Of a stretch of 64,000 nt of DNA, positions 1,509 to 56,933 are shown piece by piece. A program made the translations under genes and the position numbers. Numbering within the stretch: position 1 is the stretch's first letter; the number at the start of each line of letters is the position of its first letter. This stretch comes from a virus. Lineage: Duplodnaviria; Caudoviricetes. The stretch lies in IMG/VR virus record IMGVR_UViG_3300028833_000071, one strand, 5' to 3'. Under the pieces are notes generated by a model. It saw nothing but the letters and a program-made list of their open reading frames with translations, was not told where the DNA came from and did not search any database.

Positions 1509-1534
1509 AAAAGGGAGTATTTAACTCCCTTTTT
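1509..1534. terminator. Bidirectional intrinsic terminator
   Basis: AAAAGGGAG-tatttaa-CTCCCTTTTT between convergent genes. Confidence 0.85.
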
Positions 1535-2996
1535 AAATATCCCATGTTCCACAATTAATATATAAGTCTTCGAAATCAAGTTGATTTTCAATAATTTTAA
1601 CGCCACTTTCATTACCTTCAACGATACCATTAATTGCTTTTTTAGAAATTGAGCATAATTCATTATTCTTAATTGTCCATAATATATAGTAATCTTCAAT
1701 ACCTTGATTGTAATTTCTTATAATTATTGAATCACCATCAACAAGTTCTTTTCTAATCCATTCATTGCCGTCCCATTCATTTATATAGAATTTAATTTCT
1801 TTTTCAGGACTTTCTTCAAATGGTTCAGAAATTGTATAATTTTTACGTCTACTGGAAGTATCCTCTTTACGTAAGCCTGGTATTACATCTTCGCCTACGG
1901 CTAAATTAGTTAACATCCAAACTTTATTACCGAATATTTTTGTCGTATAATCAGTTCCTAAAATGTTTTCAATAGGATTAAAATTATCATTATAATCTTT
2001 TACTAATCTTATTGAATAAAATTGATTTGATTCTTGTAATTTTTGTGCAACGCCATTTTTATTGTATGAAAAGTATTTTATATATTGAGAATCAGGTGTT
2101 TTTTCAGTAGAAGTCCAAAAATAAGCCTCTTCATTTCGTCTACGTATAAAGTAACTATTGCCACTTCTTAAATAATAGCCACATGGAAGTACATTAAAAT
2201 CGACTTCATCAAAACCGCAAGTGCCGTCTTCTGTTATTGCATTATCATTATAAAGCCAATATTGTTCTGATTTTAATATTTGGCCGGCAGAATATCCTAA
2301 AAATTCATTAAGTTCGTCAGAATCATGGTTTTTATGTTCTTCAGTTTCAAAACTATTTAACAAGGTATCCCATTCTTCTTTTGTTGGAATGTGCCATTCG
2401 CTTTCAATCTCAGACAAATAAGTCTTTATTGGTTTAATTGCGGCGAATTGGTATAAATTACCAGTAAATTCGCCAATAGGAGGCGGCAATGTTTCTTCTA
2501 CTTTAGTTAAAGCTCTATATCCAATTTGAGGATTAATAGGGAGTTCACCACCTTCTGTCAAATCCAAATAATCATCCGCAGGGGCATAAACGCCTGTTTT
2601 TTCTGTATTATTCAAGCCCAAAGGATTATTTATTGTGCCATCACCTTTAAGCGTATTATCAGTATATAAAGATGTTGTAAATCCTGAAACAGTTGTTTGT
2701 TCTCCATCGGGATATGTAATTGTGATTTCACCATTTGAAGGGTCATATTCAAATTTTAATGTATCGGGATTTGTTAAATTTAAATTTATAATAAAATCTT
2801 CACCATTTAAGCGTTTTAAAATCAATTTATTGCCTTCCAAGTCAAAAGAAAGAATATCATAGCCTCTAAGTGTATTAAAGTTTAAATCAATTTCTTTGGC
2901 TTTTAAAGCACAATTTTTATTTATATCACCTGGATATATTATACTTTCAGGCAAATCATAATAAGTTACACCGCTTGTTAATATTGTTGTATTCAT
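1533..2996 (-). CDS. Probable virion protein with FISUMP/Fib_succ_major-like (C-lectin fold) domain
   Basis: WHIPTKEEWDTL, FNVLPCGY, AYFWTST, SIRLVKD, VWMLTNL motifs; TLKGDGT..NPL repeat-like segment. Confidence 0.65.
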   Translation of the reverse strand: MNTTILTSGVTYYDLPESIIYPGDINKNCALKAKEIDLNFNTLRGYDILSFDLEGNKLILKRLNGEDFIINLNLTNPDTLKFEYDPSNGEITITYPDGEQTTVSGFTTSLYTDNTLKGDGTINNPLGLNNTEKTGVYAPADDYLDLTEGGELPINPQIGYRALTKVEETLPPPIGEFTGNLYQFAAIKPIKTYLSEIESEWHIPTKEEWDTLLNSFETEEHKNHDSDELNEFLGYSAGQILKSEQYWLYNDNAITEDGTCGFDEVDFNVLPCGYYLRSGNSYFIRRRNEEAYFWTSTEKTPDSQYIKYFSYNKNGVAQKLQESNQFYSIRLVKDYNDNFNPIENILGTDYTTKIFGNKVWMLTNLAVGEDVIPGLRKEDTSSRRKNYTISEPFEESPEKEIKFYINEWDGNEWIRKELVDGDSIIIRNYNQGIEDYYILWTIKNNELCSISKKAINGIVEGNESGVKIIENQLDFEDLYINCGTWDI

Positions 2997-3012: not shown

Positions 3013-4587
3013 TTATGATAAATAGTTTTTTATTGCACAATAATTAATAACTCCTGAGTATATTTTAAATGATTTAATATCACCGATAAATGTTCCACAA
3101 AAATCTTGTTCAATAGGCCATGGATTTCTTACTTCAGGTCCTTCAAGTGAGAATAAATACTCTAATAAGCCGATAGAACCACCGCCGAGAGATATGTTAT
3201 ATGGAACACCTTCTTGCTTTTGACTGATTTCATCAAGTTCTTTAAATGAAAGCGCATTGAGTTCTCTGCTTATGAATTTCAAAAAGCCGTTGACATATAT
3301 CATTATTCTCATTTTTCTTGTTCTGTTGTCGCATTTGTTATCGGTTGGGTTTATAATTAAGAATCTAACATTGATTGAATTCCATTCATTGTCTTTTATC
3401 ATTCCTGGTTTGGAATACTCTTCAATTACACTATAATGGTTTTCGGCATCACAGTCCAATACGCCATATTTATATCCTATGGCACCTTCAGGTGTTACCC
3501 TTAAAGCAAAAACATTGTTTTTAACATCTTTCAATATGTTATTAACGATTTCTTCCATGATTTCTTCTTCGGTTTTACCCTCCAGTTCATCTATGTTTTC
3601 AATTAATTCGTCAATATTATTAATTGTAAAACCTGTTTCGGTCCTGTTAAGCCATGGAAAATAATTAATATTTTTTCTCTTTTTCCCCTTAACTCGTATT
3701 CTTGTACCTTCAATCCAATTATTAACAGTAAAGCCTGTTTTGGTACGGTTAAACATTAGAAACTTATTATCTGAATCATTGATAATATATTCCGTTTGCT
3801 CATCTATTGGATTACCATCAGAGTCGGTATATGGCGGGGTTATTGTAGAACAACTTTCAGCATCATTGTTGTAATAGCCATCGTCAAAATAATTTTCATC
3901 TTTAGGCGGTAATGGTAAAGTTTCTTCGCCTGAGTATAACTTCCAAAATTTATTTTCAGCTCTTGTACCGAGATAGAAGAAAATACCTGAGTTATCTGTA
4001 TGTGTATTGTTTACCGAGTTTTCAGCAATTTCATAATCACTTCTTGGCCTTAAATCAAAATGCAAAACAATATCATTGACAATCTTATCAGGAAATACTT
4101 GATAATCATATCCATGAAGTTTGAAAAAGCCTTGATAAAAGCCACCTTTAAATGACATATATTTCTTATCACCATCAGTAACTAATTCAGTATCATAAGA
4201 ATATAGCTTAGTATTGCTTTCAATCGGCGATAAAAACATTCTTGTATCACCTGATTCAATTTTATATGTTGATTTAAGAAATATATTGAGAAAATCATCA
4301 TCTGTTATGCGGTCCTTGTCAAAATGAATAAAACCATTATCAATGCCCGTCATACCAATATTATTCATTTCAACACCATTGTTTGTTGAACCACTCCACT
4401 CTATAGATGAATACCATTTACCATCATCAAATGAAAAGTCGGAAAAATCGGCAATTACCATGTCATTTAAATCCCCACTACACCCACAAAATGTCTCACC
4501 TTTGTAAATCATAAAATCATAATAATGCTGATTGTATAACTTAGAGTCTAATTGCTTGTCATATTTATTTTTAATGTTTTGATGCAT
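3013..4587 (-). CDS. Probable structural protein with C-terminal LamG/concanavalin-like segment
   Basis: 524 aa; IMIYVNG..ISLGGG..FIGDIKSFKIY pattern; upstream ACTATTTAT. Confidence 0.5.
   Translation of the reverse strand: MHQNIKNKYDKQLDSKLYNQHYYDFMIYKGETFCGCSGDLNDMVIADFSDFSFDDGKWYSSIEWSGSTNNGVEMNNIGMTGIDNGFIHFDKDRITDDDFLNIFLKSTYKIESGDTRMFLSPIESNTKLYSYDTELVTDGDKKYMSFKGGFYQGFFKLHGYDYQVFPDKIVNDIVLHFDLRPRSDYEIAENSVNNTHTDNSGIFFYLGTRAENKFWKLYSGEETLPLPPKDENYFDDGYYNNDAESCSTITPPYTDSDGNPIDEQTEYIINDSDNKFLMFNRTKTGFTVNNWIEGTRIRVKGKKRKNINYFPWLNRTETGFTINNIDELIENIDELEGKTEEEIMEEIVNNILKDVKNNVFALRVTPEGAIGYKYGVLDCDAENHYSVIEEYSKPGMIKDNEWNSINVRFLIINPTDNKCDNRTRKMRIMIYVNGFLKFISRELNALSFKELDEISQKQEGVPYNISLGGGSIGLLEYLFSLEGPEVRNPWPIEQDFCGTFIGDIKSFKIYSGVINYCAIKNYLS
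3018..3026 (-). promoter_or_regulatory. ACTATTTAT putative late promoter
   Basis: Same motif on the minus strand at 4619, 5315, 12608, 24936, 27430 and on plus at 36285, each just upstream of a co-oriented gene. Confidence 0.65.
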
Positions 4588-4618
4588 TACCGTATTTAAA
4601 TTAAAAATTATTCCATTT

Positions 4619-4627
4619 ATAAATAGT
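4619..4627 (-). promoter_or_regulatory. ACTATTTAT putative late promoter
   Basis: About 30 nt upstream of 3013..4587. Confidence 0.65.
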
Positions 4628-4679
4628 TTGGCTAATGCTTTTGTTTGAGCAATTCTATATCACTTAACATAAAAAAAGA

Positions 4680-4703
4680 AAAGCGTCCCAATCGGAACGC
4701 TTT
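4680..4703 (-). terminator. Intrinsic terminator
   Basis: AAAGCGT(C/T)C hairpin with T-run on minus strand downstream of 4772..5314. Confidence 0.65.
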
Positions 4704-4771
4704 CAGCGTATGTTTGAAACTTCAATCGGCTTGGTCAAACCGAATAGGGTGTTTGTGTTGTGCAGAGCGGC

Positions 4772-5314
4772 TTAAATACCCATATCCATAAGCTCACGGT
4801 TTGCACTTCCTTTACGATGTAAAAGACGAGAATCTGCTTGCTTTCCGTATTTTGCAGCCTCTTTTTGGCGTTTCCATTGTTTATCAAATTTCTGTTTTAG
4901 TAATGTGAATGGGTCGTCTACATCAACATCCTGTACATATTGTTTTGCTTTTTTACGATAATCTTGAGTAAAATCAACGGAACTATCTTTAGGATGTCTA
5001 ATTTCATATTCTTTTTCGAGAATCGAAAATCTATTAGATATGGCGTTGTAAATTTTAGTCCACGCATATTTGTCATAACCATATGAAGCTTCTAAGTCAG
5101 AAAACCAACCCATACCACTGTCGCCAAATTCACATATTTCTGCATCGTAATCGCCATTTATAATTTGAGAGCAAAAATTATCTATGTGATTGTATTTGTT
5201 TTCTCTCAGCACTTTTTTCACAGATTCATTGACGATTTGGTGTAATTGGCTTTCTGTAAGTCTAATAACTTGTTTTCTATTCATATTTTGAATTTTATTC
5301 ATCTTATTTTTCAT
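4772..5314 (-). CDS. Protein with N-terminal LTE-helix tag (putative head-packaged protein)
   Basis: QVIRLTESQLHQIVNESVKKVLRE; ATG directly follows ACTATTTAT (5315-5323). Confidence 0.65.
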   Translation of the reverse strand: MKNKMNKIQNMNRKQVIRLTESQLHQIVNESVKKVLRENKYNHIDNFCSQIINGDYDAEICEFGDSGMGWFSDLEASYGYDKYAWTKIYNAISNRFSILEKEYEIRHPKDSSVDFTQDYRKKAKQYVQDVDVDDPFTLLKQKFDKQWKRQKEAAKYGKQADSRLLHRKGSANRELMDMGI

Positions 5315-5386
5315 ATAAATAGTATGAAGTTTTGAATTTTTCAGATTTTTTTCGTATATTAAAAAAGGACATTTAAAAATTAAGCG

Positions 5387-5980
5387 ATGTTTAAAAATTT
5401 GACTATTGGTATTGATGTTGACGGAGTTTTGAGGGATAATCTTCAAATCATGGTTGACTTGTATAACAAGGAGTTTAATAGTTCTATGACTGTTGACGAT
5501 ATAAAAGATTATCGGACAGAGGTAACATTTCCATCCATAGAAACAACCACAGGAAAAACAGCAAGCGAATGGTTTTTTCAGGACCATTCCAAAGAAATAT
5601 TCTTAAATGCAAGCCCATTTCCAAATGTAGCTGATGATATTAAGAAACTTAGAGAATATGCAAATGTTATTATTATAACATATCAAAAATCGTTTAAAAA
5701 CAAGATGGAAACTCTATGTTGGCTTGAAAACAACGGGATAGAATATGACGGGATTATGTTTATAAAAGATAAAACAAGACTGTTGTGTGATTATTTGATT
5801 GACGACAATGATTGGAATTTTATTGATTCCAATGCTACACACGCTATTTTAATTAATGCGCCATATAATAAAAACAAAACCGTTATAAATATGCTTAAAA
5901 ATAGCGGTTGTGACGATATGAAAAGATATGATAGTTTTCACGAATTTGTTAATGATTTCTGCGAAGCACAAAAAATTTAA
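5387..5980 (+). CDS. HAD-family 5'(3')-deoxyribonucleotidase (NT5C-like)
   Basis: IGIDVDGVL motif I, LIDD motif, APYN. Confidence 0.85.
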   Translation: MFKNLTIGIDVDGVLRDNLQIMVDLYNKEFNSSMTVDDIKDYRTEVTFPSIETTTGKTASEWFFQDHSKEIFLNASPFPNVADDIKKLREYANVIIITYQKSFKNKMETLCWLENNGIEYDGIMFIKDKTRLLCDYLIDDNDWNFIDSNATHAILINAPYNKNKTVINMLKNSGCDDMKRYDSFHEFVNDFCEAQKI

Positions 5981-5985
5981 AAACA

Positions 5986-6945
5986 ATGGAAAACAATAAG
6001 TTAAGACAAAGATTCGTTAAGGATTATAATCTACCCATCAATGTATTTGATGAAAAAATTTTCAATTATTATTCAAATCTTTATGATTTTTTCCCAAAAG
6101 ATAAATGGGAGAATTTAAAAACAATGATTGACGAGAAATATGATGGCAATGTTGAGAAGTGGCTTGAATATTGCGCTTCAGTAAGAGATAATGCCATTTA
6201 TGGGGTTATTGAAACAGATAAGTATAAGGAGTTTAATAATTGTGATTTATCTCAATATAAAGTATCTTCTGTTGTTGGTGAGCATAGTTGTTATACCAAT
6301 GAGACTGATGGTTGTCTTTTTGTTTCAATTGATTTAAAGAAAGCAAATTTTCAGGCATTGAAGTATGTTGGTGTGCTTGATGATGAAGATTATGACCATT
6401 TTATTGAAAAGTATGATGGTGATGATTATATAAAGGGAAGCAAATACCTAAGACAGGTTATATTTGGCAAGATGAATCCTGGCCGAACTATAACAGTTGA
6501 AAAATATATAATGGGAAAGATAATGCCAATTGCTGATGAAATATTACCATTTGACTTTAAATTATATTTATATTCCCAAAATAGTGATGAACTTGTATAT
6601 AAGCAGTCTGATACATGGATATATCCCGATAAACTAAAAGAATTTTGTGAAAAAATTGAGGAAAGAGTTTTAAATGAACTTAACATTGAAGTTCGTGCTG
6701 AATACATTAAGGTTACAAAATTACCAATAGTTAATATAAATGGTAATAATGTTGATGCATTTGTCCGTGAGAATTTAATTACCAATGAGAAAGTTCTCAA
6801 AAAGGCTTCAACAACATTTTATCCACAGATATATAAATTATGGAAAAATCTTGCAATTGAGGATAATGACCTTATATTTTACTTTGAAGACCAATTAGCA
6901 CATTTTAATAATAAATTAATAAAAATCAATAATGGAAACAAATAA
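5986..6945 (+). CDS. Conserved phage protein with polymerase-palm-like motifs
   Basis: FVSIDLKKANFQAL and QNSDELV. Confidence 0.45.
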   Translation: MENNKLRQRFVKDYNLPINVFDEKIFNYYSNLYDFFPKDKWENLKTMIDEKYDGNVEKWLEYCASVRDNAIYGVIETDKYKEFNNCDLSQYKVSSVVGEHSCYTNETDGCLFVSIDLKKANFQALKYVGVLDDEDYDHFIEKYDGDDYIKGSKYLRQVIFGKMNPGRTITVEKYIMGKIMPIADEILPFDFKLYLYSQNSDELVYKQSDTWIYPDKLKEFCEKIEERVLNELNIEVRAEYIKVTKLPIVNINGNNVDAFVRENLITNEKVLKKASTTFYPQIYKLWKNLAIEDNDLIFYFEDQLAHFNNKLIKINNGNK

Positions 6946-7220
6946 TGACATAATAAAAAACGATGAAGGAAATAGGATTACTTGACGATTTATTTTTTGT
7001 TTATGGTGAAAAAGGTTTTAAATATAAGCATTGTCGTACACCAAGAATGTATACTTATATTGAAGTTAATTTTATAAAACAGCAAAATTTTTTTTCTAAA
7101 TTTCAAAATCCATGTAGACGCGACAAGACAAAAGTTAATTTGGTGATTGCAAAACAAAAAATTTAAAAAAATTGTATATTTAAGAAAAAAAATGTATATT
7201 AGTATAAAAAATAATTATTT

Positions 7221-8336
7221 ATGTTTAACGAATTCAAAATTTTTAAAAACATTAATCTACCATTTGACAAATCAAGCACATATGGTGATGTCGATGGTAT
7301 CTCATTACAAAATTTGTTTTATGCAAGGAATGGATGTTTTCCTGGGTGCTATCTGTTTGATTATGATTCAAGAACCAATGGTGATTATAAATTTAACACC
7401 AAGGAAATAGCGAAATATCTCTTGGAAAATACACCAAAAGATGAGGACATGGAATTTATTCCTTATTTTACTAATATTCTTGGCAGTAAAGATGATAAGA
7501 CAAATTTCGGTTTTTGCATTATACTTAACAAAAGTAATTTGTATGCAAGATTTGAAACTTCGGTGACTGAATCTTATATTTTGTTTGATAACAAGCATAT
7601 TGACGAGCTAAATAGTTTTGTTGAACACATTTTGCAGTTTTATATTGCTCCTGAGGAAGAGGAAAATAACATTTGGCGTTTGTGTCAAAGTTCTTCCGGA
7701 TTTTATCTTGACAAGGGAAAAGTTAAGGTATATCAGAACTTCGATATACATAAGTTATATAATGACGGTTTTGAGACCGAAGATGAAAAAATCAGCAAGT
7801 TTATTGCAGAAGACGATAAATCGGGCCTTGTTATTCTTCATGGAGAAAAGGGTACGGGCAAAACCTCTTATATTAAACATCTTGTCAACTCTTATCCTAA
7901 TAGGAAGTTCGTCTATGTACCTGCACATATGATTAATATTTTGAGTGAACCTGCATTTGGCTCATTCCTTATAACATTAAATAACCATGTTATTGTGCTT
8001 GAGGATTGTGAAAACGCCATAAGAGATAGACGTGCAAGTGGTTCAGCATCAGCAGTTTCCTTGCTGCTTAATATGACAGATGGATTGCTTTCTGATGACC
8101 TTGGAATTAAATTTATATGCACTTTCAATGAAGATATGAAAAATATAGACCCAGCACTTTTAAGAAAGGGTAGATTGATGGCTAAATATGAGTTTAAGGA
8201 ATTGGCTATTGATAAATCAGAAGCACTTCTTAGAGAGCGTGGTATCGAAACCAAACTTAATAAGCCCATTACACTTGCGGAAATATTCCATTATGGTGAG
8301 ACTGATTATGAAACTTCTAAAAAACCACTTATTTAA
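7221..8336 (+). CDS. AAA+ ATPase
   Basis: Walker A GEKGTGKT, Walker B IVLEDCE, SRH IDPALLRKGR. Confidence 0.9.
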   Translation: MFNEFKIFKNINLPFDKSSTYGDVDGISLQNLFYARNGCFPGCYLFDYDSRTNGDYKFNTKEIAKYLLENTPKDEDMEFIPYFTNILGSKDDKTNFGFCIILNKSNLYARFETSVTESYILFDNKHIDELNSFVEHILQFYIAPEEEENNIWRLCQSSSGFYLDKGKVKVYQNFDIHKLYNDGFETEDEKISKFIAEDDKSGLVILHGEKGTGKTSYIKHLVNSYPNRKFVYVPAHMINILSEPAFGSFLITLNNHVIVLEDCENAIRDRRASGSASAVSLLLNMTDGLLSDDLGIKFICTFNEDMKNIDPALLRKGRLMAKYEFKELAIDKSEALLRERGIETKLNKPITLAEIFHYGETDYETSKKPLI

Positions 8337-8339
8337 TAT

Positions 8340-8558
8340 ATGGCAAAGAAAGATTTAATTGTAGAAGAAGGTGTTGTCGTACAGGCACTTCCAAATGCAA
8401 TGTTTAAAGTTGAACTCGACAGTGCTGAAATAACACTTTTATGTGTTATCAGTGGAAAAATTAGACAAAATTATATCCGAATATTGGAAGGTGATAGGGT
8501 CCGTGTTGAAATTTCTCCTTATGACCTTACAAGAGGACGTATAGTAGCAAGATTATAA
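8340..8558 (+). CDS. infA: Translation initiation factor IF-1
   Basis: [58 protein letters not shown]. Confidence 0.97.
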
Positions 8559-8578
8559 TTTTAAAAAAAGTATAAAAT

Positions 8579-8965
8579 ATGTTAGAAAGTTTATTGAAAT
8601 TATTTGAAAGGCACCAAAGTATGCCTGATGGTTACGATGAGCAATTTGAAGATGATTTGGCTTCCGTATTTGGATTAAAGCCAATCCAGTTCTATATGCC
8701 ATCAACAATTGGAGATTATAGTTTTAAAACTAAAGATGATGGCTATGAATTCTCAATGGCTGTCGGTTTAAAGGCTACCTCTGATAATGTCAAGATTGAC
8801 CTTGATAAGAATAACAATCTTAGTGTTAAATATTCATTCAAGGATGACAATTCAGAACATATCACAAGTATAAAAAGAACGCTTCCGAAGGATGCTGACC
8901 TTGATACTCTTGATGCGGAAATTAGGCACGGACAGTTGATTATTACAGTTAAACGCAATGCTTAA
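8579..8965 (+). CDS. Small heat-shock protein (Hsp20/alpha-crystallin)
   Basis: KRTLPKDADLDTLDAEIRHGQLIITV C-terminal signature. Confidence 0.75.
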   Translation: MLESLLKLFERHQSMPDGYDEQFEDDLASVFGLKPIQFYMPSTIGDYSFKTKDDGYEFSMAVGLKATSDNVKIDLDKNNNLSVKYSFKDDNSEHITSIKRTLPKDADLDTLDAEIRHGQLIITVKRNA

Positions 8966-8970
8966 AAATG

Positions 8971-9004
8971 AAAAAGGGTGGCGAAATCGTCACCCTTTAT
9001 TTTT
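8971..9004. terminator. Bidirectional intrinsic terminator
   Basis: AAAAAGGGTGGCGA-aa-TCGTCACCCTTT between convergent genes. Confidence 0.85.
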
Positions 9005-9023
9005 GACAATCTATTAGGTTTTA

Positions 9024-9824
9024 TTAATAAAGTTCTATAACGACACTTCCATTACTTGTGTCGGCTTCTATAAATGTTCGTTCACTTTCAAGCGCTTGGG
9101 CTAACATTCTAACATTGATATAATTTTCAATTGTTTCTTTTGGCGCATTTTCAATATCACCATACATTTGGTTAATTATTTCTTCACCAAGGGCTTCGTC
9201 ATCATCTTCATCAACGCCAAATTCTTGATAAATACTTTCAGAGTCTTCATTATATGGGCCATCCCATGAACATTCACGCCCAAATCTTTCATAATCAAAA
9301 TAGTATTCAAGATTACTAAAGCTTTCAGGCCCTGATTCGTCAAGATATTGATATACAACATCTTCAACACTATCACAATTATAATGGACGGTATAATCTT
9401 GATTATTTAATATATTCATTGCTTCATTTGCATCGTCACAATAATCCGCAATGGCTTCTTTTATAGAATAATCTTCATCTATATTGATAAAATCCCAAAG
9501 TTCGTCTGAAATATAACTTTCACTAATAAATCCTTCAGGGATATTTTCCCAGTCTTGGAACATTAATTCGGCATCTCTTTCATCTGCATGAAGCGTTTCT
9601 CTACAATATTCAAGAAATTCTTCTCTTGAGTCAAAATTATCAAGATTAACCCATTCGCCTTTTAATGAACCTGAATTATACTTTCCATAAGTACCCACAT
9701 ATACAGCAGGACTATCATTTGAAGCCCTATATTGTTCTTTCAATATTTTAACGGCACGTTTTACCATGTACCTTATGTCTTGCTCTGTGATTTGCATTTT
9801 ATTGTTTTTCATTTTATATTGCAT
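9024..9824 (-). CDS. ardA: ArdA-family antirestriction DNA mimic with N-terminal helix tag
   Basis: AVYVGTYGKYNSGSLKGEW, ELMFQDWENIP, YFDYERFGRE; very acidic. Confidence 0.88.
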   Translation of the reverse strand: MQYKMKNNKMQITEQDIRYMVKRAVKILKEQYRASNDSPAVYVGTYGKYNSGSLKGEWVNLDNFDSREEFLEYCRETLHADERDAELMFQDWENIPEGFISESYISDELWDFINIDEDYSIKEAIADYCDDANEAMNILNNQDYTVHYNCDSVEDVVYQYLDESGPESFSNLEYYFDYERFGRECSWDGPYNEDSESIYQEFGVDEDDDEALGEEIINQMYGDIENAPKETIENYINVRMLAQALESERTFIEADTSNGSVVIELY

Positions 9825-10512
9825 TTAAATAATTTATTATTCCATCGACATGGGTCTTGATTACCATTTTACGGCCCTCATCCGAAAGTATGTATTTTAA
9901 ATCTTCAATATTGTCATAGAAGAAATTTTCTGTTAATACAGCGGGGCAATTTGTGTTCTTTAAAATATAAAAATCGCTTTCCCAATCTTTATCACCATCG
10001 GATTTGTCGGTCCTTATTTTTAACCCCTTAAAGTTCTTTTCGGCTTCAGCATATAAATATTCAGCCAATTTATCGCTTTTTGTTGTGCCTTTTGTTGTAT
10101 ATGCAGACCATCCTCTTGCGTCTTTCCATTCGCTTCCACTACCAGCAGCATTGGAATGTACTGAAACTAAGATAACCTTATCTTTACCGACTTGGGAACA
10201 CATTTTGTTTACACGGTTCACACGTTCTTTTAATGAGATATCGTTATCTTCAGTTACAAGTAATCTGACATCATAACCCATTCCTTTTAGGCTATTATAA
10301 ATCTCATTGGCTATTTCTCTATTCCATTTGTATTCATAAAAATCCAATTCAGGTTTTATTCCTTTTGATGAATAAGGACTTCTTTTACCTGGGGTATCAT
10401 TTCCATGACCATTGTCTATATATATAACAGTTTCAGGTATATTGTTTGTGCTTTCAGGCATAATTTCATTGTTATTATCATTATTTTCTAAAGTGTTATC
10501 TTCTTCTTGCAT
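9814..10512 (-). CDS. N-acetylmuramoyl-L-alanine amidase (Amidase_3), endolysin-like
   Basis: IDNGHG, E..WN, VSVHSNA, PAVLTENFF. Confidence 0.92.
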   Translation of the reverse strand: MQEEDNTLENNDNNNEIMPESTNNIPETVIYIDNGHGNDTPGKRSPYSSKGIKPELDFYEYKWNREIANEIYNSLKGMGYDVRLLVTEDNDISLKERVNRVNKMCSQVGKDKVILVSVHSNAAGSGSEWKDARGWSAYTTKGTTKSDKLAEYLYAEAEKNFKGLKIRTDKSDGDKDWESDFYILKNTNCPAVLTENFFYDNIEDLKYILSDEGRKMVIKTHVDGIINYLNAI

Positions 10513-10596
10513 ATTGTCAACATTTTCCTTTTGAATTTTTTTTTTAAAAAGATTAATTATATTTTCAAGTATTTTTTTTATTTTTAATTTTAATTA

Positions 10597-11142
10597 TCAT
10601 TTTATCTTTCTTGAATTTTCTTTAATTAGTCTAACAGCCTTTTTAACCATATCATAAATATCATTTTCAGTTAAATGAATTTTTTTATTTTCATATAAGT
10701 CATCATCATCACGGTCATAAGGGTCAAAATCATAGTCACTATTATACTCATCACGTTCACCAGCAAGAAATTCCAAGTCAAAATCCATTAAATCTGCTAT
10801 TTCACCATAAGTCTTACCATCAATTTTATTTATTATGTCTTCATATATTATGTCTTCATAAGGGCCATCCTCATTTACAACAGAAATCTTTGTTATTTCG
10901 AAATCAAAATCACTATCATCCAACTCAAATTCAGCCGGATAAGCGTAATCATTTGAACTATAATTGCCTCGTCTTGTACAATACCAACTTGGACATTCAG
11001 TTACCTTATATTCAACATAATATGTATGCAATTTACCTTGAGCTTCTATGCAACCTTCAGTATTACTAATACCGCGATTCTCTTTGGAATTTCTTAATGC
11101 TTCCTTTAAATCTTGTATTATATTTTCAAGTGTTTCTTTCAT
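10597..11142 (-). CDS. Acidic protein with C-terminal LTE-helix tag
   Basis: KKIHLTENDIYDMVKKAVRLIKE. Confidence 0.65.
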   Translation of the reverse strand: MKETLENIIQDLKEALRNSKENRGISNTEGCIEAQGKLHTYYVEYKVTECPSWYCTRRGNYSSNDYAYPAEFELDDSDFDFEITKISVVNEDGPYEDIIYEDIINKIDGKTYGEIADLMDFDLEFLAGERDEYNSDYDFDPYDRDDDDLYENKKIHLTENDIYDMVKKAVRLIKENSRKIK

Positions 11143-11161
11143 TGTTTTTTATTTTAATTTG

Positions 11162-12580
11162 TTATTTTATTGGTGAAGTCATATAATATTGATAATGATA
11201 CCATCCGTTAAGTAAGTTTATTGCGTCCTGTTGAACCATACTATTTGTTGACACTTTTAATGTTAAAGTACCGGTGTAGTTCATAGTAAAAATTACAGTT
11301 GTATCTGCTGAAGAATTGGCTGGTACACTAACAGTTTTAATAAGAGTATTATTACCATATATATTAACATCTACATCAGAATTTTGGCTATTTGTAAGAG
11401 TTGGTAGATGAAGCCCATATGTATTGACACTTTTAAAATTGTCTATACTAGCGAAATCTTTGGTGGATGAATTAATACTTACAGCAGAACAGTAGTAAGT
11501 TGGTTCTTGTATTTTTCCAATTTCAGGGTCATTAAATTCATATTTATATCCTGGCCTTATTGCTTTTGTGTTGTTAAATGTTAATATTTTATATTTTTTT
11601 TCAGTTAAAAAGCCACCTGAATCGTTAATTATACAAGGTGCCATTTGTCTTGTATTACCACTTAAGAGCAAATAAGGATTTAAATTTGTATAATAATCAC
11701 TATTTACTGCCGGAATCATACTGGAAGTTAAAGAATGGTTTATACTGTTATAAGTTCTTGCTGCAACTGTTTCAGCATCAGTTTCGCCTGTTGTAGCATT
11801 TACAACTAGTGGGGTATTAAAAGTTGCAGTAAAGCCCTGTGTTGCTCCGTTAAAAAAACCTTTTCTCTGTAAGGTTCCTGTGACAGTAGTTGAAGTATTA
11901 GAACTTGTAGAAAGGCAAATAAATCCGTCAGTGCCGGTATATAAGGTTTTTGGTTTACTTCCTTCTAATTGTGGAAAAATTGTTGTTTGATTATCTATTG
12001 CAACTTTTACGCCTTGTATTGGTTGACCATCATATACAACTTTTACACTTATTTCATTTTCTCGCACAAAATTATTGGTGTTAGTAATACCTATTCCTGA
12101 GCATACTTGGTTATAATCCTTAACACATGCAGATTCACTTGTATATGATTGGCCCCAAAGAGTAATCCAAGTCTCAAGGGAAGTATGTGTTGTTGTAGAT
12201 AAGACAATTGGAATATAGCCCACAATACTTTGGCTTGAAAGATTACCGACTTGTGGCGTTGATGCAGTATAACGTGCTTTATAATATAAATTAATTTTAG
12301 AAGCGCCACTAAGATTACGTAATTTAATTACATTATCTGCTACACTTTGAAATACGCTTGCATAACTATCAGCCATATTTCCCGAAAAACTACGATTCCT
12401 ATCAAAGTAACCATGTAATGAATTTAATGCATATGTATATCCGCCACCAGACCATCCCCAATTTACATTATTTATGTCAGACGGGTCAAATGTCCCTTCG
12501 GTAGTTGTGTTTGAATATGCATTGCTATAATATCCATAATTACGTAATTCAGCCGCTAACCAATAATAATAAGTAGCCAT
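11162..12580 (-). CDS. Ser/Thr/Asn-rich beta protein, probable virion/tail component
   Basis: 473 aa; GQPIQGVKV..TGTDG Ig-like segment; ACTATTTAT at 12608-12616. Confidence 0.55.
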   Translation of the reverse strand: MATYYYWLAAELRNYGYYSNAYSNTTTEGTFDPSDINNVNWGWSGGGYTYALNSLHGYFDRNRSFSGNMADSYASVFQSVADNVIKLRNLSGASKINLYYKARYTASTPQVGNLSSQSIVGYIPIVLSTTTHTSLETWITLWGQSYTSESACVKDYNQVCSGIGITNTNNFVRENEISVKVVYDGQPIQGVKVAIDNQTTIFPQLEGSKPKTLYTGTDGFICLSTSSNTSTTVTGTLQRKGFFNGATQGFTATFNTPLVVNATTGETDAETVAARTYNSINHSLTSSMIPAVNSDYYTNLNPYLLLSGNTRQMAPCIINDSGGFLTEKKYKILTFNNTKAIRPGYKYEFNDPEIGKIQEPTYYCSAVSINSSTKDFASIDNFKSVNTYGLHLPTLTNSQNSDVDVNIYGNNTLIKTVSVPANSSADTTVIFTMNYTGTLTLKVSTNSMVQQDAINLLNGWYHYQYYMTSPIK

Positions 12581-12660
12581 ATTAAAATCTTTTATCTTTA
12601 TTTCTTTATAAATAGTTACGACATTGAAAATTAACAATAAAATAAGTGTTTTCTTTTTTC

Positions 12661-12682
12661 TTTGGCATAATTTTTGTATATT
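12661..12682 (+). promoter_or_regulatory. sigma54-like -24/-12 motif fused to TTGTATATT
   Basis: TTTGGCATA-ATTT-TTGTATATT; one of 13 intergenic copies. Confidence 0.7.
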
Positions 12683-12712
12683 AAGTTCATGGAAATTTAA
12701 AAACTTGGAAAA

Positions 12713-20279: not shown

Positions 20280-21045
20280 AATGGAAAAAAGCATAAAAGT
20301 ATTAATCATTCCTGATGTTCACGGAAGGGAATTTTGGCGTGAGCCGGTAAAAGAGATTTTAGAAAATACAGATGCGAGAATCGTTTTCTTAGGCGATTAC
20401 CTTGACCCTTATCCGTGGGACTTTGACCATAATCATTACCAACAACAAGCAATTGATGTTTTTAATGAAATAATCAATTTGAAAAAAGAAAACAAAGACA
20501 GAATTACTTTATTGCTTGGTAATCATGATATGGGATATAGATTCGGCCTTGATATATGTGATTGCCGTACTGACTATTATAATTTTGAAAAGATTAGGAA
20601 TACATTTATTGAGAATAAGGATTTGTTCCAACTTGCAGATGAAGAATACATTGAAGATAAGCACTATATTTTTAGTCATGCAGGAATACACAAAGGATAT
20701 GTGAAATATGCATTTCCCGATGAGTTTGATTCCATAACCGAAGAAAATGTTGTTGATTATTTTAATAATGCCTATTTTACTGAAGACCCTAAAGTCATTA
20801 ATTCACTTGGAATGTATGATGCTTATAGAGGATATGGAGCATATGATTATGGCTCTCTTGTATGGGCTGATATTCATAGCTGGCTTCATAGACTTTCAGA
20901 CGAAGAGGAATATGATGTATATCAAATATTTGGGCATACTCAAATGGAACACGGAAGTGGTGGTTTTTTTGCAAATACATTTGCTTGTTTAGATAGTGCT
21001 GAAGCATTTATAATTAATGATTTAGGAAAAATTGAACAATTTTAA
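20269..21045 (+). CDS. Calcineurin-like metallophosphoesterase
   Basis: PDVHG, LGDYLD, GNHD, SHAG, FGHT. Confidence 0.9.
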   Translation: MKFKMEKSIKVLIIPDVHGREFWREPVKEILENTDARIVFLGDYLDPYPWDFDHNHYQQQAIDVFNEIINLKKENKDRITLLLGNHDMGYRFGLDICDCRTDYYNFEKIRNTFIENKDLFQLADEEYIEDKHYIFSHAGIHKGYVKYAFPDEFDSITEENVVDYFNNAYFTEDPKVINSLGMYDAYRGYGAYDYGSLVWADIHSWLHRLSDEEEYDVYQIFGHTQMEHGSGGFFANTFACLDSAEAFIINDLGKIEQF

Positions 21046-21118
21046 AAATAAAATTTGTATATTTTAATTGAAGATAATTTTAAAAAAGAAAGATAAAACA
21101 TTAAATAAAGATTAGAAT

Positions 21119-21397
21119 ATGATTTGGATTAGACTTATTTTAACACTTGTCATCATGTTAATGGCAATTTACTATGTAATGCTTTTATTTCAATGTGTAA
21201 CAGATTGGTTCAAATTCACCAATAGGAAAATAACATTTAAGAGATGTTTGATACCTTTTTATTATTGGATTGCACCAATTAATGAAGGAAAAAAGAACAA
21301 ACCTGTTTCGGACTATGCTGATGAAGAAAGTCATGAAACTGAAACACGTGAAAAGAATATTAAAGAAAAAACTTCGTTTAAAAAAACTAAAAAATAA
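21119..21397 (+). CDS. Small membrane protein upstream of SPFH gene
   Basis: N-terminal TM helix. Confidence 0.65.
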   Translation: MIWIRLILTLVIMLMAIYYVMLLFQCVTDWFKFTNRKITFKRCLIPFYYWIAPINEGKKNKPVSDYADEESHETETREKNIKEKTSFKKTKK

Positions 21398-22132: not shown

Positions 22133-23035
22133 AATGGACGTGGTATGATAGTTGGCTCATTCCGTGTAGTTTTGCCGACAGACAAACAAAACATGGAAAA
22201 GATTCAGAGAGATTTCGGTTCAGAAGAGGCTTTGATTAACAACATCGTTAGACCTACACTTTATAAAGTTGTAACAGCGTGTGGCCCTCTTATGTCATCA
22301 CTGCAATCAGTATCTGAAACTCGTACAGACCTTATTGATTATATTACAGACCAATTGAATAACGGTGTGTACAAGACAAAGGCCGTTAAGACAGAGGTGC
22401 TTAACGAGATTACAGGTGAAAAGGAAATGAGAACCACTGCTCAAATTATAGAGGATAGTTTGGCACCTCGTGGTTATAAGAGACAAGAGGTTTCACCCTT
22501 TAGCCAATATGGTATTACTTGTGGTTTGGTGTCAATTACTGATATTAAGTATGATGCTGCAACACAAGACCAAATTGATGCTCAAAAGCAAGCTAATTTG
22601 GCTGTTATAACTTCAAAAACAAGGTCAATAGAAGCAATGCAAAAGACCATCCAAATTGCTGAGGAAGGTAAGGCAGCAACAGAAAAGGCTAAGTGGGAAC
22701 AAGAGCGTATAAAGATTGTCGAAGTCACTAAGGCTGAACAGGAACGAGAGGTTTCACGACTTGCAGCAGAAAAGGCCGAGTTCGATAAGAAACGAGTTAT
22801 TGCTGAAGGTGAGGCTAAGGCCGCAGCAAATAGAGCACTTGTTGCAGCAGGTCTTACTCCTATTGAAAAGGCAACAATTGAAAAGGAAACCAAGATTGGT
22901 GTTGCACAGGCTTTGAAAGATATTAGACTTCCAAAGATTGTTATGACAGGCAATAATGGCGGTGGTGGAAATACAGCATTTGATGCCATGGGCCTGAAAG
23001 CAATGACAGAACTTGTGGATAAAATGTCGGAGTAA
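22133..23035 (+). CDS. SPFH/band-7 family protein, exon 2
   Basis: NGRGMIVGSFRV; Ala/Glu/Lys coiled coil; LPKIVM..GGG tail. Confidence 0.8.
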   Translation, partial: NGRGMIVGSFRVVLPTDKQNMEKIQRDFGSEEALINNIVRPTLYKVVTACGPLMSSLQSVSETRTDLIDYITDQLNNGVYKTKAVKTEVLNEITGEKEMRTTAQIIEDSLAPRGYKRQEVSPFSQYGITCGLVSITDIKYDAATQDQIDAQKQANLAVITSKTRSIEAMQKTIQIAEEGKAATEKAKWEQERIKIVEVTKAEQEREVSRLAAEKAEFDKKRVIAEGEAKAAANRALVAAGLTPIEKATIEKETKIGVAQALKDIRLPKIVMTGNNGGGGNTAFDAMGLKAMTELVDKMSE

Positions 23036-23062
23036 ATAAAATTACTTTAATCAAAAATATGT

Positions 23063-23091
23063 GGGGCAATTATTAAAATTGTCCCTTTTTT
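23063..23091 (+). terminator. Intrinsic terminator
   Basis: GGGGCAATT..AATTGTCCC + T6. Confidence 0.75.
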
Positions 23092-23135
23092 GTTTTTAAA
23101 AAATAATTTTGTATATTTGTAATAAAAAACAGAAC

Positions 23136-23630
23136 ATGGAACCAAACATTAGTGAAGACATGATAAACGAGTTGCATCAGTTGACTGGCGCAGGCATGAT
23201 GCGGTGCAAGGAGTCACTATCTGCACTTGTAGAAGCGTTAAAGGCAAACATAAATAGACCGAGAAAAACGGACGTAGGATATAAAATTAAAATTGATTTT
23301 GAAGAATATCCTTTAAGGAAACCGCCAATAACACAGGCAGCGCCCAGCTTTATTAGATTTATTGGGGTGTGTGGTGATGAATTGCAACCATCATGCAAAC
23401 GAGAATGCACTTATTTTTCGTGCGATTACGAGTTTGGAGAACTTCCAGAGACTCTTAATAAAGTATATAATGCGTATCAAAAAGAAAATTTTAAGACATT
23501 TTCTGAACGAAATGATGATGTACTTACAGAATTAACAAGACAAATGTTTAAAGAGTTTGATGATTTCCTTAAGAAAGAATTTGGCAAAAAATTCGTTCAT
23601 ACGGAATATTTTACGACAACTTTTTCATAA
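23136..23630 (+). CDS. Protein with EF-Ts N-terminal (UBA-like) domain
   Basis: ISEDMINELHQLTGAGMMRCKESL resembles EF-Ts VKELRERTGAGMMDCKKAL. Confidence 0.65.
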   Translation: MEPNISEDMINELHQLTGAGMMRCKESLSALVEALKANINRPRKTDVGYKIKIDFEEYPLRKPPITQAAPSFIRFIGVCGDELQPSCKRECTYFSCDYEFGELPETLNKVYNAYQKENFKTFSERNDDVLTELTRQMFKEFDDFLKKEFGKKFVHTEYFTTTFS

Positions 23631-23640
23631 AAAAGTAAAG

Positions 23641-23661
23641 TTTGGCACAGTTTTTGTATAA
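23641..23661 (+). promoter_or_regulatory. sigma54-like promoter interrupted by IS insertion; also the TnpB guide-encoding flank
   Basis: TTTGGCACAGTTTTTGTATAA abuts IS right end. Confidence 0.7.
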
Positions 23662-25067
23662 CTGACATACTCCCACGATTGAAATCGTGGGGTTCTTAAT
23701 TTCTTAAGAACCTGTATTTATCAACAAGTTATTCTTGTTGACCACGCTTGACACATCAAGTGGCGCTGTCAGCAGCGCAAGGTGATTTTGTTCATATCGC
23801 TTCAATATGTTAATCGCAGCGTTTAAATCACGGTCTATTACTATGGAATCGGAAATCTGTACCGTCCTGTCGGACAGTCCAACCCTTTCCTCAAACAATT
23901 TGCCGGTCAGACAGTTTTGTTGTGTTGTCCATTTCTCGTTAATGGAAATAAGTTCAGTATTGCTGTTCTGACATTTGTATGACAAATATTCCATAAATGT
24001 GGCTATTGATGATTCACTGAAGTTGCGAGAATTCTTCGTTAACTTGTTGCTTCTCTTCTCCATCAGTGTCTTCACACTCAAGTCACCAACTACAATTGTC
24101 TTGTAGTTCATATTCACCAATTTCTTGCTCTGAATATGCAGAGTCTGTTTTATCTGTGCATTTTTCCTTTTATACAGTTTGTTCTTCACCTTCTTTAACT
24201 TGCAGTGACGGCTGCTGCCCTTTGTGCATTTATCCATTTTGGACTGAACTGACGATATCTGCTTGCGGAAATACTTGTTTATCCTTCTTGCTTTGTTCGG
24301 TATCGTGACAACATTGCCCAAATTATCGACACAGTTGCACAGGTTTTTAATGCCAAGGTCAATCGCAAGTACCTTGTTTTCAGTTGTCAACACCTCTTCT
24401 TCGTCAACATGGTTTGCTACACCTAAGTCAAGCAGATATTTTCCGTTGACCATCTTCAGTTTGACTTCCTTGACAGTTAAAGACTTGTAGTCAATATTCG
24501 GGATACCTTTATAAGTTACGGCAATACCATTTACTTTCAATGTGGTGTTATTTATGAATTTCCATCCCGATTGGTTGTACACAACAGTGTGAAATTTGTC
24601 AACATCGTTGATTTTATGGGGCGGTTTCGCTGTATGGTCTTTTTTAACCAAAGTGAAAAAAGACTTGTATGAGGAATAGATTTCCTTGGCAACCCTTTGG
24701 CTTGCCTTGGAGTTAAGGCAAGTTAAAAAGGGATTTTCTTTTCTGAGGAAGGTTATATCTCTGTCAAGGTCAAATTCGGTTTTTATCTTTCCTGTTGTTT
24801 CATAGGTTTGGTTTTCGATGTCGATAAGCAGGTTATACAAAAGGTTCCTTGCAAGGGACAGGTTTTTCAGTTCCTGCTCCTGCTGACCATTCGGGAAAAG
24901 TCTTAATGTATATGTCCTGTACTGTATCATCACTTATAAATAGTATAATTATTAAAAAAAGTCAAGAAATTAATAAAAAATTTTATTTATTTAATAAAAA
25001 AATTGTATATTTAGGATAGAGCAATTCATCCCACGACTAAAGTGGTGGGCTTTCTTGCTCGTTTATC
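23662..25067 (-). mobile_element. IS200/IS605-family element, tnpB only (IS1341-like)
   Basis: IS608-like ends on minus strand. LE: TTAC|14 nt-AAAG-hairpin. RE: GAAC-hairpin-AGTATGTCAG. Confidence 0.88.
23704..24933 (-). CDS. tnpB: TnpB RNA-guided endonuclease
   Basis: YTLRLFPN..Q N-terminus, LAIDLG, IVVGDL, INEKWTTQ, DRDLNAAINIL. Confidence 0.93.
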   Translation of the reverse strand: MMIQYRTYTLRLFPNGQQEQELKNLSLARNLLYNLLIDIENQTYETTGKIKTEFDLDRDITFLRKENPFLTCLNSKASQRVAKEIYSSYKSFFTLVKKDHTAKPPHKINDVDKFHTVVYNQSGWKFINNTTLKVNGIAVTYKGIPNIDYKSLTVKEVKLKMVNGKYLLDLGVANHVDEEEVLTTENKVLAIDLGIKNLCNCVDNLGNVVTIPNKARRINKYFRKQISSVQSKMDKCTKGSSRHCKLKKVKNKLYKRKNAQIKQTLHIQSKKLVNMNYKTIVVGDLSVKTLMEKRSNKLTKNSRNFSESSIATFMEYLSYKCQNSNTELISINEKWTTQQNCLTGKLFEERVGLSDRTVQISDSIVIDRDLNAAINILKRYEQNHLALLTAPLDVSSVVNKNNLLINTGS

Positions 25068-26657: not shown

Positions 26658-27413
26658 TCATAATGGTTTATATTCAAAATTTCGAACCTTAAATGGTGTA
26701 TAAAGTTCATTTGGCACTTTAGATGGGTCAGCCACATAAATATCAATTATAGCATCCATTAAATATCCGTGTTCAGGCGTTCTAAGATTTTCCGTTAACA
26801 TATGGGCATATTTTTTACCCACAGTACGATTTACTTTTCCATTGGCCTTGAATGTAATCTTATCAGGCTCCCAAATGCACTCATATTTAATCCAATTTTC
26901 AGTGGGGTCTAGTTTTTGTTTACAATAAGGAATATTTTTTGATTTAATATTCCTATGTATTAAATCCTCATCATTATAATGGACATTTGATGTTGTCAGC
27001 CATGATGGATTTATCCATGGGAATTCTTTTGTGAATATTTCCCAATAGTCTTTATTCTTTGACCATGCTTCACATATATCAATTTCAGGTGGCCAATTGC
27101 CATCGCCGCTTAACCAAAATGAAGCGCCTACATTTAATCCTTTAGGCATTAATGCTTCTACAGAGAAAGTGCCATAATCAAATGAGGTTAATGACCTTAT
27201 AAGACCTCTTTCTAATGAAGGATGATAAATTTTTCCATCCCAATATTTAACATCTTTGGGATTTGGCCTATAATACATTGAAATTTCATTGTTTTCGTTT
27301 ATTTTAACGACATCAGGTGTGTCACTAAGCCAATAATAAGGCTCGTCAGGATGTATTATCCTACCACCTTCCATTTTGCAGTCCCAATCATAACCGCACC
27401 AATTTATTACCAT
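26658..27413 (-). CDS. Glycoside hydrolase family 16
   Basis: FDYGTF, SFWL, WPPEIDICE (ExDxxE); ACTATTTAT at 27430-27438. Confidence 0.85.
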   Translation of the reverse strand: MVINWCGYDWDCKMEGGRIIHPDEPYYWLSDTPDVVKINENNEISMYYRPNPKDVKYWDGKIYHPSLERGLIRSLTSFDYGTFSVEALMPKGLNVGASFWLSGDGNWPPEIDICEAWSKNKDYWEIFTKEFPWINPSWLTTSNVHYNDEDLIHRNIKSKNIPYCKQKLDPTENWIKYECIWEPDKITFKANGKVNRTVGKKYAHMLTENLRTPEHGYLMDAIIDIYVADPSKVPNELYTPFKVRNFEYKPL

Positions 27414-36212: not shown

Positions 36213-36293
36213 TAAATAAAAAAAAAGGGAACTATATACTTGATGGCACAGGATTTTGAACAATAGGAAAATATTTGTGGTATAACTATTTAT

Positions 36294-36587: not shown

Positions 36588-36607
36588 AAGGAAACAGATG
36601 TTATGAA
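36392..36607 (+). ncRNA. Stand-alone TnpB omegaRNA-like RNA plus flanking guide
   Basis: Homologous to 61895-62062 with compensatory changes; GACTAT/GTAGTC pseudoknot potential; promoter motif at 36377. Confidence 0.7.
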
Positions 36608-37478
36608 ACAAGAAATAATAAAACTAAATAAAAATAATTTAGTAAATATTGTATGCAAAAGTATAAGACAAATCATTAATGAATCAAATTGTTTGAAATA
36701 TAATATTGACATTTCTAAAATTGACATTGGAGATTTAAAAAAGGCTTATAAAGATTTTAGACTTGTACCAACACAAGCGTGTTTTGATGATGTATTATAT
36801 AGGCCAACAACAATCAAAGAAGCTTTTGGTGATATTTTGCAACCAGACGATGTTGTTAACAAAATAATCAATAAATATGGCATACCATCAAGTTGTGTTC
36901 TTAAAAGAGAAGCTTACAATAAAATCTACATATATGTTGTCACGGCAGTAATTGGGATTAATGATAAACTTATAGAAAATGATATGTCAAAGATGGGTTA
37001 TTATTTGGGATTCAAAGGAAATATTCAGGATGTAGGTGGAATGCAATTTCAAACGCTTCAATTTGAACCATCAAGTCAATTACAGGATGATGAAACAGAA
37101 AACATAAAGTCAGCTTATAATATATTATATCATTGGACACCATCTTATTCATTAGATGGAATTATGCAAAATGGTTTAATACCAAGCAGTAAAAACAAAG
37201 TGTTTAATTATCCACCGAGAACATATTTAATGAAAGGAGATTGTAGTGATAGATATATATTAGGGTTGGGACAATCTTTATGCTCTTCAAATGATAACCC
37301 CAATAATAATGGTGAATATGCCTTGTTAGCAATAAATATTGAGAATATTGATGACGACATTAGATTCTATTACGATTCAAATAGTGAAATGGGAATATAT
37401 ACAGAGCAACCAATAGCCAAAGATAGAATTAAAATAATGAATACAGTGCAATTTGTAAAAAACATTAAAAATCAATAA
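36603..37478 (+). CDS. Helix-tagged protein with ADP-ribosyltransferase-like C-terminal domain
   Basis: N-terminal IIKLNKNNLVNIVCKSIRQIINES; LYHWT..IMQNGL..RTYL..YYD..IYT pattern. Confidence 0.6.
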   Translation: MKQEIIKLNKNNLVNIVCKSIRQIINESNCLKYNIDISKIDIGDLKKAYKDFRLVPTQACFDDVLYRPTTIKEAFGDILQPDDVVNKIINKYGIPSSCVLKREAYNKIYIYVVTAVIGINDKLIENDMSKMGYYLGFKGNIQDVGGMQFQTLQFEPSSQLQDDETENIKSAYNILYHWTPSYSLDGIMQNGLIPSSKNKVFNYPPRTYLMKGDCSDRYILGLGQSLCSSNDNPNNNGEYALLAINIENIDDDIRFYYDSNSEMGIYTEQPIAKDRIKIMNTVQFVKNIKNQ

Positions 37479-56657: not shown

Positions 56658-56933
56658 ATAGGAAAAAGAACAATTAAAATAAATGAGGAAGACATAAGAA
56701 ATATTGTTGCAGAAAGAAAGGAATTAATTTCTGAAATGGCAACTTTAAGAATGAAAGATAGTAATTTGCCAATGGATGTATGGCTTGATGAAGGTGCAAC
56801 TTATGTTGGTCACGCACCAAGACTTAAATTTAGAGCAAGCAATGGCCAAAGAACTACAAGAGAATTTTCATCCATGTTGCTAACAAATCCACCAAATATG
56901 ATAATTGACACAACCACCTCTAAACAATCTTGA
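56658..56933 (+). pseudogene. Decayed helix-tagged gene next to a TIR
   Basis: ATA (for ATG) GKRTIKINEEDIRNIVAE..LISE in frame with MATLRMKDSNLP; ends early. Confidence 0.6.

Follow-up and report, generated by a model that had tools for sequence, protein, structure and literature searches.

A single short peptide is carried by several otherwise unrelated proteins encoded on a 64,000-nucleotide stretch of DNA from an uncultured T4-like tailed phage of gut or rumen (IMG/VR record IMGVR_UViG_3300028833_000071; Duplodnaviria, Caudoviricetes), the whole of which is referred to here as the window. This tag is a portable module, and it is probably a propeptide that loads proteins into the capsid, corresponding to phage T4's capsid targeting sequence but much longer and better conserved. 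As in the T4 system, one short terminal peptide recurs on unrelated proteins, with three strong carriers in the window (the anti-restriction protein ArdA and two proteins, P1 and P3, for which no Pfam or PHROG family was found) and one remnant. A further protein, P4, without a Pfam family, has a tag-like N-terminus that is marginal. The carriers and their tags are located as follows:

4772..5284, minus strand: P1, 170 residues, with an N-terminal tag of canonical form (50-54 bits with the tag profiles)
5201..5275, minus strand: tag of P1, KQVIRLTESQLHQIVNESVKKVLRE, ending in L-R-E (found by pattern and by profile)
9024..9812, minus strand: ArdA anti-restriction protein with an N-terminal tag (Pfam ArdA, PF07275, 87.9 bits against a cut-off of 27, residues 41-191 of a 266-residue open reading frame)
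9735..9806, minus strand: tag of ArdA, NNKMQITEQDIRYMVKRAVKILKE; the linker QYRASNDSP separates it from the core (AVYVGTYGKYN...)
10597..11142, minus strand: P3, 181 residues, acidic, with a C-terminal tag (profile match)
10618..10689, minus strand: C-terminal tag of P3, NKKIHLTENDIYDMVKKAVRLIKE (found by pattern and by profile)
10690..10698, minus strand: L-Y-E directly before the P3 tag (from the translation), where cleavage by a Glu-specific protease would be required for release of the cargo
36603..37478, plus strand: P4, 291 residues, with the marginal tag-like N-terminus IIKLNKNNLVNIVCKSIRQIINE at 36615-36683 (9-12 bits, independent E-value (iE) 0.009-0.057)
56658..56933, plus strand: remnant of a tagged family of 260-residue proteins (16-20 bits over profile positions 1-17)

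A sequence logo of the database tags gave the 25-residue consensus MKKxIRLTESDLHRIVKESVKRILKE, which reads M-K-K-x-I-R-L-T-E-S-D-L-H-R-I-[IV]-K-E-S-V-K-R-[IV]-L-K-E when the alternatives are written out. Conservation extends from Met-Lys-Lys through Glu25 and then vanishes abruptly. About 90% of the tags have L or I at position 23 and 92-94% have E at position 25, and the residue directly after Glu25 is mostly G, A, N or S. An [LI]xE end was present in 241 of 274 database tags, a count that is partly circular, since the profile used to collect the tags includes [LI]xE. The tags of the window end in LRE, LKE and IKE. A second L-T-E lies near the start of the tag, and T7, E8, S9, E17, S18 and E25 are conserved polar positions. 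In a single-sequence AlphaFold2 model of P1, which was weak for the whole protein with a predicted local distance difference test (pLDDT) score of 62, residues 5-8 are modelled as a strand and residues 11-28 as a helix in the tag region (pLDDT about 68), suggesting that the tag folds as a short strand leading into a capped amphipathic helix. The conservation profile shows no conserved second helix after the tag. Pfam contains no model for the tag, its sequence was not found in published literature, and a literature search returned no description of such a tag in metagenomic jumbo phages.

The preliminary description of this DNA had assigned the motif to five unrelated proteins, namely P1, ArdA, P3 and the open reading frames (ORFs) at 36603 and 56658. 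We applied a strict regular expression to all six frames of the window and obtained exactly four matches, all within real ORFs (5216-5260, 9747-9791 and 10630-10674 on the minus strand, 36624-36668 on the plus strand); a looser pattern gave an additional match at 56673-56708 (plus strand) in the ORF at 56658. A profile hidden Markov model (HMM) built from the tags of the window and its relatives, a check that the same description had proposed, placed the three minus-strand carriers at 44.7-53.8 bits (P1 53.8, ArdA 47.6, P3 44.7), the remnant at 16.2 and P4 at 11.6, while the best of the reversed ORFs reached 4.2 bits, corresponding to five hits against none in the control. With an HMM built from database proteins only, P1 scored 50.3 bits, the remnant 20.3, P3 18.4, ArdA 11.2 (iE 0.013) and P4 9.1 (iE 0.057). 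The tag of P1 is thus canonical, and those of ArdA and P3 represent a common diverged subtype, in which one residue is missing ahead of the final Glu. The assignment therefore stood firmly for P1, ArdA and P3, including the C-terminal position claimed for P3, and marginally for the ORF at 36603 (the P4 homologue in the related genome G001, described below, has a similarly weak N-terminus). It did not stand for 56658, which is a pseudogene remnant with half a tag.

In comparison with its database homologues (P0005-P0019) the remnant retains the first 17 tag residues (56664-56714) and has ATA where they start with ATG. Two internal stretches are lost, one by a deletion between two VAE repeats and the other, of about 45 residues, near the C-terminus. 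Proteins of the 260-residue family itself are built from two halves that resemble each other (LNVDIFVDDGGSY..HNH for one and LPMDVWLDEGATY.GHAPRLKF for the other), and no Pfam model matches them. Its member in G001 (20527-21282, minus strand) lacks the tag and keeps the late motif described below, so the tag has been gained and lost within this family.

In pairwise BLASTP comparisons among the carriers the sole significant match was tag against tag (ArdA 2-29 with P3 151-178, 50% identity, E 1.8e-6), and the carriers are on this basis otherwise unrelated. At the DNA level the window tags share 39-61% nucleotide identity and identical residues are mostly encoded by different codons, which indicates that selection acts on the peptide. 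The same values argue against a DNA-level recombination handle or a translation-start context without peptide function, either of which would fit the observation that most copies lie at gene starts behind a common promoter; the existence of C-terminal and internal tags likewise contradicts such a handle. Chance resemblance is opposed by the empty reversed-sequence controls and by an exhaustive profile search, which returned 6,699 protein clusters at E<=1e-3, of which 201 reach E<=1e-10. We therefore rejected these explanations, which we regard as very improbable.

The modular nature of the tag is apparent from ArdA, an inhibitor of type I restriction. Its identification is secure as judged by the domain match: the core lies at 9252-9704 and the PHROG annotation is also anti-restriction protein. 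Among the best 120 of 249 homologues above threshold 34 are tagged, including nearly all that are closely related to it (42-78% identity). In form these tags extend from the canonical one (MNKKQVIRLTESQFRKIIKESVKYIINE) to short versions; every one of them ends in [LIM]xE, and a linker of about 10 residues separates the tag from the VYVGTYGKYN core. Distant homologues of 160-180 residues begin at the core, from which we conclude that the tag was added onto an intact ArdA. The ArdA of the window had no match in IMG/VR. It shares its cargo domain (PF07275) with the ArdA proteins of conjugative elements and differs from them in its N-terminal tag and in its position in an operon with an endolysin behind a late-promoter motif. 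Classical ArdA is expressed early after DNA entry.

We also analyzed the context in which the tagged genes are transcribed. The window is AT-rich (about 31% G+C) and consists of a long plus-strand block of small genes together with a few minus-strand units. The elements around the carriers are:

5315..5323, minus strand: ACTATTTAT before P1, late-promoter-like; the same motif precedes structural genes in G001
4679..4704, minus strand: terminator-like hairpin 3' of P1
12608..12616, minus strand: ACTATTTAT heading the operon of 11162-12580, P3, amidase and ArdA
11162..12580, minus strand: first gene of this operon, 472 residues, with a weak DUF4198 match, behind the late motif
9814..10512, minus strand: N-acetylmuramoyl-L-alanine amidase (endolysin) of the same operon, untagged (Pfam Amidase_3, 95.6 bits; PHROG endolysin)
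8973..8998, both strands: two-way terminator-like hairpin ending the ArdA operon and a converging plus-strand unit
36285..36293, plus strand: ACTATTTAT 310 nt upstream of P4

ACTATTTAT occurs seven times in the window against 2.2 copies expected. Six copies are on the minus strand, 5-33 nt upstream of minus-strand gene starts, and the motif heads every minus-strand unit of the window, including the endolysin operon. The hairpins at 4679-4704 and 8973-8998 bound two of these units, that of P1 and that of 11162-12580, P3, amidase and ArdA. An earlier statement that the intact carriers lie behind the motif directly or through an operon is borne out by the copies before P1, before the P3/ArdA operon and, at a distance of 310 nt, before 36603. 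The extent first proposed for P1, 4772..5314, had to be revised: the ATG at 5314 abuts the motif, and the ATG at 5284 (MNRKQVIRLTE...) fits the motif spacing seen elsewhere as well as the usual distance from Met to tag and is therefore the likely start. The product of 11162-12580 is probably a virion protein, judging by its position behind the late motif. Behind ACTATTTAT we also noted a GH16 glycoside hydrolase (26658-27413, minus strand) and a protein with a Fib_succ_major domain (1533-2996, minus strand), which are likely virion-borne depolymerase or receptor-binding proteins. A TnpB-like gene (23704-24930, minus strand) lies directly behind a copy of ACTATTTAT at 24936-24944 on the same strand.

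The complete genome G001 (339,287 bp, direct terminal repeats, 100% complete) allowed the motif to be viewed next to recognizable structural genes. Of the 103 window genes 27 have a match in G001, at 24-83% identity and mostly at 30-50%. The motif CTATTTAT is present there in 36 copies, about 24 of them located 6-40 nt before gene starts in sense orientation. Genes behind it include those of the Peptidase_S77 (S77) protease, the tail sheath (PHROG) and the head operon, in which a tagged gene, a scaffold-like gene and the capsid gene follow one another in this order, as well as the homologues of window genes 1533-2996 and 3013-4587. Since it precedes tagged genes together with the head operon, protease and tail sheath genes of G001, CTATTTAT is predicted to be a late promoter of this phage group. 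In G001 we counted 13-14 tags, nearly all directly after the start Met, against none in the reversed control; this count is a lower bound, because degenerate N-termini fall below the HMM threshold. Six of 13 tagged genes have CTATTTAT directly upstream (hypergeometric p = 2e-5), so the co-occurrence of tag and motif for which a search had been suggested is indeed found. Degenerate tag-like N-termini were seen at 82691-83047 and 70979-71323 on the plus strand and at 290736-291758 on the minus strand, one of them just before the portal gene and two behind CTATTTAT. The S77 protease gene of G001 (22353-24155; L006:2353-4155, plus strand) is split into two S77 matches by an intein, whose Intein_splicing match of 26.4 bits is below the Pfam cut-off of 35.8.

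Beyond the window and G001 the tag was found on many unrelated proteins, at N-termini, C-termini and internally, in agreement with the portability originally proposed for it. Among the best 150 clusters of the exhaustive search, a set biased towards multi-tag proteins, we counted 137 N-terminal, 118 internal and 21 C-terminal tags; 113 clusters contain two tags and seven contain three. A word-based search recovered the tag on the 260-residue family, on a two-tag protein and on unrelated small proteins. Carriers mostly belong to no family, and the few with Pfam domains are diverse and unrelated. Internal tags (for example in P0025, P0033 and P0078) are often preceded by Met and a Lys-rich stretch after an x-E-S site. 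The arrangement resembles a fusion of entire tagged genes into polyproteins. Within the 12 residues upstream of internal and C-terminal tags a hydrophobic-x-E site is present in 59% of cases compared to 18% of background windows, a difference that has to be read with caution as it derives from related sequences and the linker background is rich in acidic residues. The P3 tag, preceded by LYE, and the C-terminal tag in G001, preceded by LRE, illustrate this.

The position of these sites bears on the question whether the tag is removed. A tag that stays on the protein could act as a virion-targeting anchor, holding proteins to the capsid interior, the portal, the DNA or the tail, with the terminal Glu as part of a binding helix. 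Tagged genes do cluster with head genes, and the tag is more conserved and richer in polar residues (T7, E8, S9, E17, S18, E25) than a cleavage leader needs to be. A permanent anchor would however leave open why conservation stops at L-x-E followed by a small residue, which matches the specificity of S77 proteases, and why a Glu site tends to sit just upstream of C-terminal and internal tags. It would also hinder ArdA, which is needed in the host cytoplasm. We therefore consider an anchor unlikely.

We determined in which genomes the tag occurs. In IMG/VR a scan located the tag at 28 loci, distributed over 27 contigs of which many measure 195-412 kb; six complete genomes bear the tag (five in addition to G001), all of 339-412 kb. 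A Gp23-type capsid gene and Peptidase_S77 were detected above the Pfam cut-offs in six of six, and in these complete relatives the tagged loci lie within a few kb of protease or capsid genes. A scan of GTDB genomes, run with a four-sequence alignment, gave 24 loci in gut and rumen metagenome-assembled genomes (MAGs), mostly binned as Bacteroidales or Prevotella. Gp23 was also present on one 286-kb contig among them, and the GTDB loci are therefore interpreted as mis-binned phage contigs. Judging by the MAG binning, the hosts are probably Prevotella or other Bacteroidales. A homologue of P1 with 93% identity is located on a 48-kb rumen contig. Among GenBank phages we found no DNA match to window positions 4000-12700 and no tblastn match to the 260-residue family.

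A role outside the virion was considered as well, in which the tag serves as a general self-association or partner-binding helix, either as half of a ribbon-helix-helix dimerization element or as a degron for an unfoldase of phage or host such as ClpX. The strand-plus-helix form predicted by AlphaFold2 would be compatible with this, and there is a weak likeness to Pfam RelB_like_antitoxin over the first half of that model, seen at 12.8 bits for a single tag and with an E-value of 2e-5 for three multi-tag proteins. That match, to PF25734, is nevertheless below the cut-off of 27 and covers only model positions 2-23 of 43, and nothing is conserved after the first helix. Membership in the ribbon-helix-helix or RelB-like antitoxin families was rejected, given a subthreshold match to half of the model and no second helix. 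With regard to a degron, one tagged gene of G001 adjoins what we take, from reading its N-terminal sequence, to be a ClpX-like gene. Neither variant accounts for the link to late promoters, for the proximity to head genes or for the tag being confined to phages whose heads are of T4 type, and a binding helix of this kind seems rather improbable.

Capsid loading followed by cleavage is the explanation that we favor, on account of the [LI]xE end, the second L-T-E near the start of the tag and the hydrophobic-x-E sites upstream of C-terminal and internal tags. By analogy to the internal proteins and Alt of T4 (PMC9026906, PMC3012670), tagged cargo would be packaged, docked, cleaved and injected. 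Tagged proteins would be produced late from CTATTTAT promoters, and during prohead assembly the short strand and amphipathic helix would dock on the scaffolding core. The S77 (gp21-type) prohead protease would then cut after the Glu of L/I-x-E, at the end of the tag when it is N-terminal and just upstream of it when it is C-terminal or internal. The freed cargo would be kept in the head and enter the host together with the DNA. In the window the cargo would comprise ArdA, which could inhibit type I restriction before any phage gene is expressed, as well as P1 and the acidic P3 (pI 4.05 without the tag). The structure model of P3 was unusable (pLDDT 38, AlphaFold2 single-sequence), and the ESM Atlas contained nothing usable for the cargo function of the window proteins.

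Several observations weigh against this explanation. The tag is without similarity to the T4 targeting sequence and has 25 residues instead of 10, and its many conserved polar positions could equally mark another binding partner. The tags of ArdA and P3 are diverged and score 11-18 bits with the independent profile. For the genome from which the window derives, S77 and Gp23 genes are predicted from the relatives. Finally, the tag-bearing genomes represent one phage group, in which the co-occurrence with S77 may just reflect descent. As for a docking partner, comparison of the tag-like helix in the scaffold-like protein of G001 by hhalign gave a probability of 2% and an E-value of 0.023, suggestive at key positions and not significant.

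The T4 targeting sequence, which we take to be MKTYQEFIAE, shows no similarity to the tag by inspection (no alignment was run); common to both are only the Met-Lys start and the I/L-x-E end. In T4 the S77 protease gp21 cuts after L/I-x-E, as the preliminary description had assumed, and the N-terminal 10 residues of IPIII direct proteins to the prohead core before being cleaved off (PMC9026906). From work on T4, an exchange of Glu for Asp is expected to stop processing and to leave targeting intact (PMC9026906). T-even internal proteins are diverse anti-restriction cargo with only the conserved targeting sequence in common (PMC3012670). Like the T4 sequences of IPI, IPII and IPIII and the Alt propeptides, the tag is a terminal peptide on unrelated, fast-evolving proteins and ends in L/I-x-E; both systems combine a Gp23-type capsid and an S77 protease (here known from the complete relatives) with anti-restriction cargo, and the carriers are late, which is predicted here from the promoter motif. 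Alt, which loses propeptides at both its N- and C-terminus (PMC9026906), is a precedent for a C-terminal propeptide. In contrast to T4, the tag is a strand-helix form of about 25 residues, two or three tags per protein are common, at least 13 carriers were counted in G001, and the clusters found across jumbo phages of gut and rumen number in the thousands. The tag thus differs from the T4 capsid targeting sequence while fitting the same logic, and would be a variant rather than the identical signal.

Two further systems invite comparison. The giant phages phiKZ and SPN3US have head and ejection proteins whose propeptides are reportedly cut by gp21-like proteases. We know of no single conserved portable sequence in these propeptides. 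As is proposed for the phages considered here, many head-internal proteins are matured by Glu cuts in short motifs, with several sites per propeptide (specificity: PMC9026906). The lineage of phiKZ and SPN3US is different from that of the T4-type genomes described here. Bacterial microcompartments use encapsulation peptides and encapsulins use cargo-loading peptides; these are short amphipathic helices at either terminus, joined through a poorly conserved linker, which direct unrelated enzymes into a protein shell. They differ from the tag in that they serve cellular compartments, are not removed by a maturation protease and have no sequence relation to it.

Apart from the minus-strand units, the window contains a homologue of translation initiation factor IF-1 (8340-8558, plus strand; Pfam eIF-1a, 83.7 bits), whose neighbors are genes for an Hsp20-like protein (8579-8965) and an AAA ATPase (7221-8336).

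A wider proposal, for which we see not quite an even chance, is that the tag, by its sequence alone, defines the injected proteome of a large group of T4-like jumbo phages of gut and rumen. It would represent a two-ended loading module that can sit at either terminus or between domains; the protease would process multi-tag proteins as polyproteins, yielding several cargoes, and ArdA would be delivered ready-made with the DNA. To our knowledge, co-injection with DNA is a delivery route that has not been described for ArdA, which would in this way join IPI* and DarB among the co-injected anti-restriction proteins. If the tag does direct proteins into heads, thousands of functionally uncharacterized proteins of gut and rumen viromes would become recognizable as virion-delivered effectors, the first phage products that the host cell meets. 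A self-contained tag of 25 residues that functions at either terminus would then also provide a practical handle to package foreign proteins into phages of Bacteroidales-type hosts.

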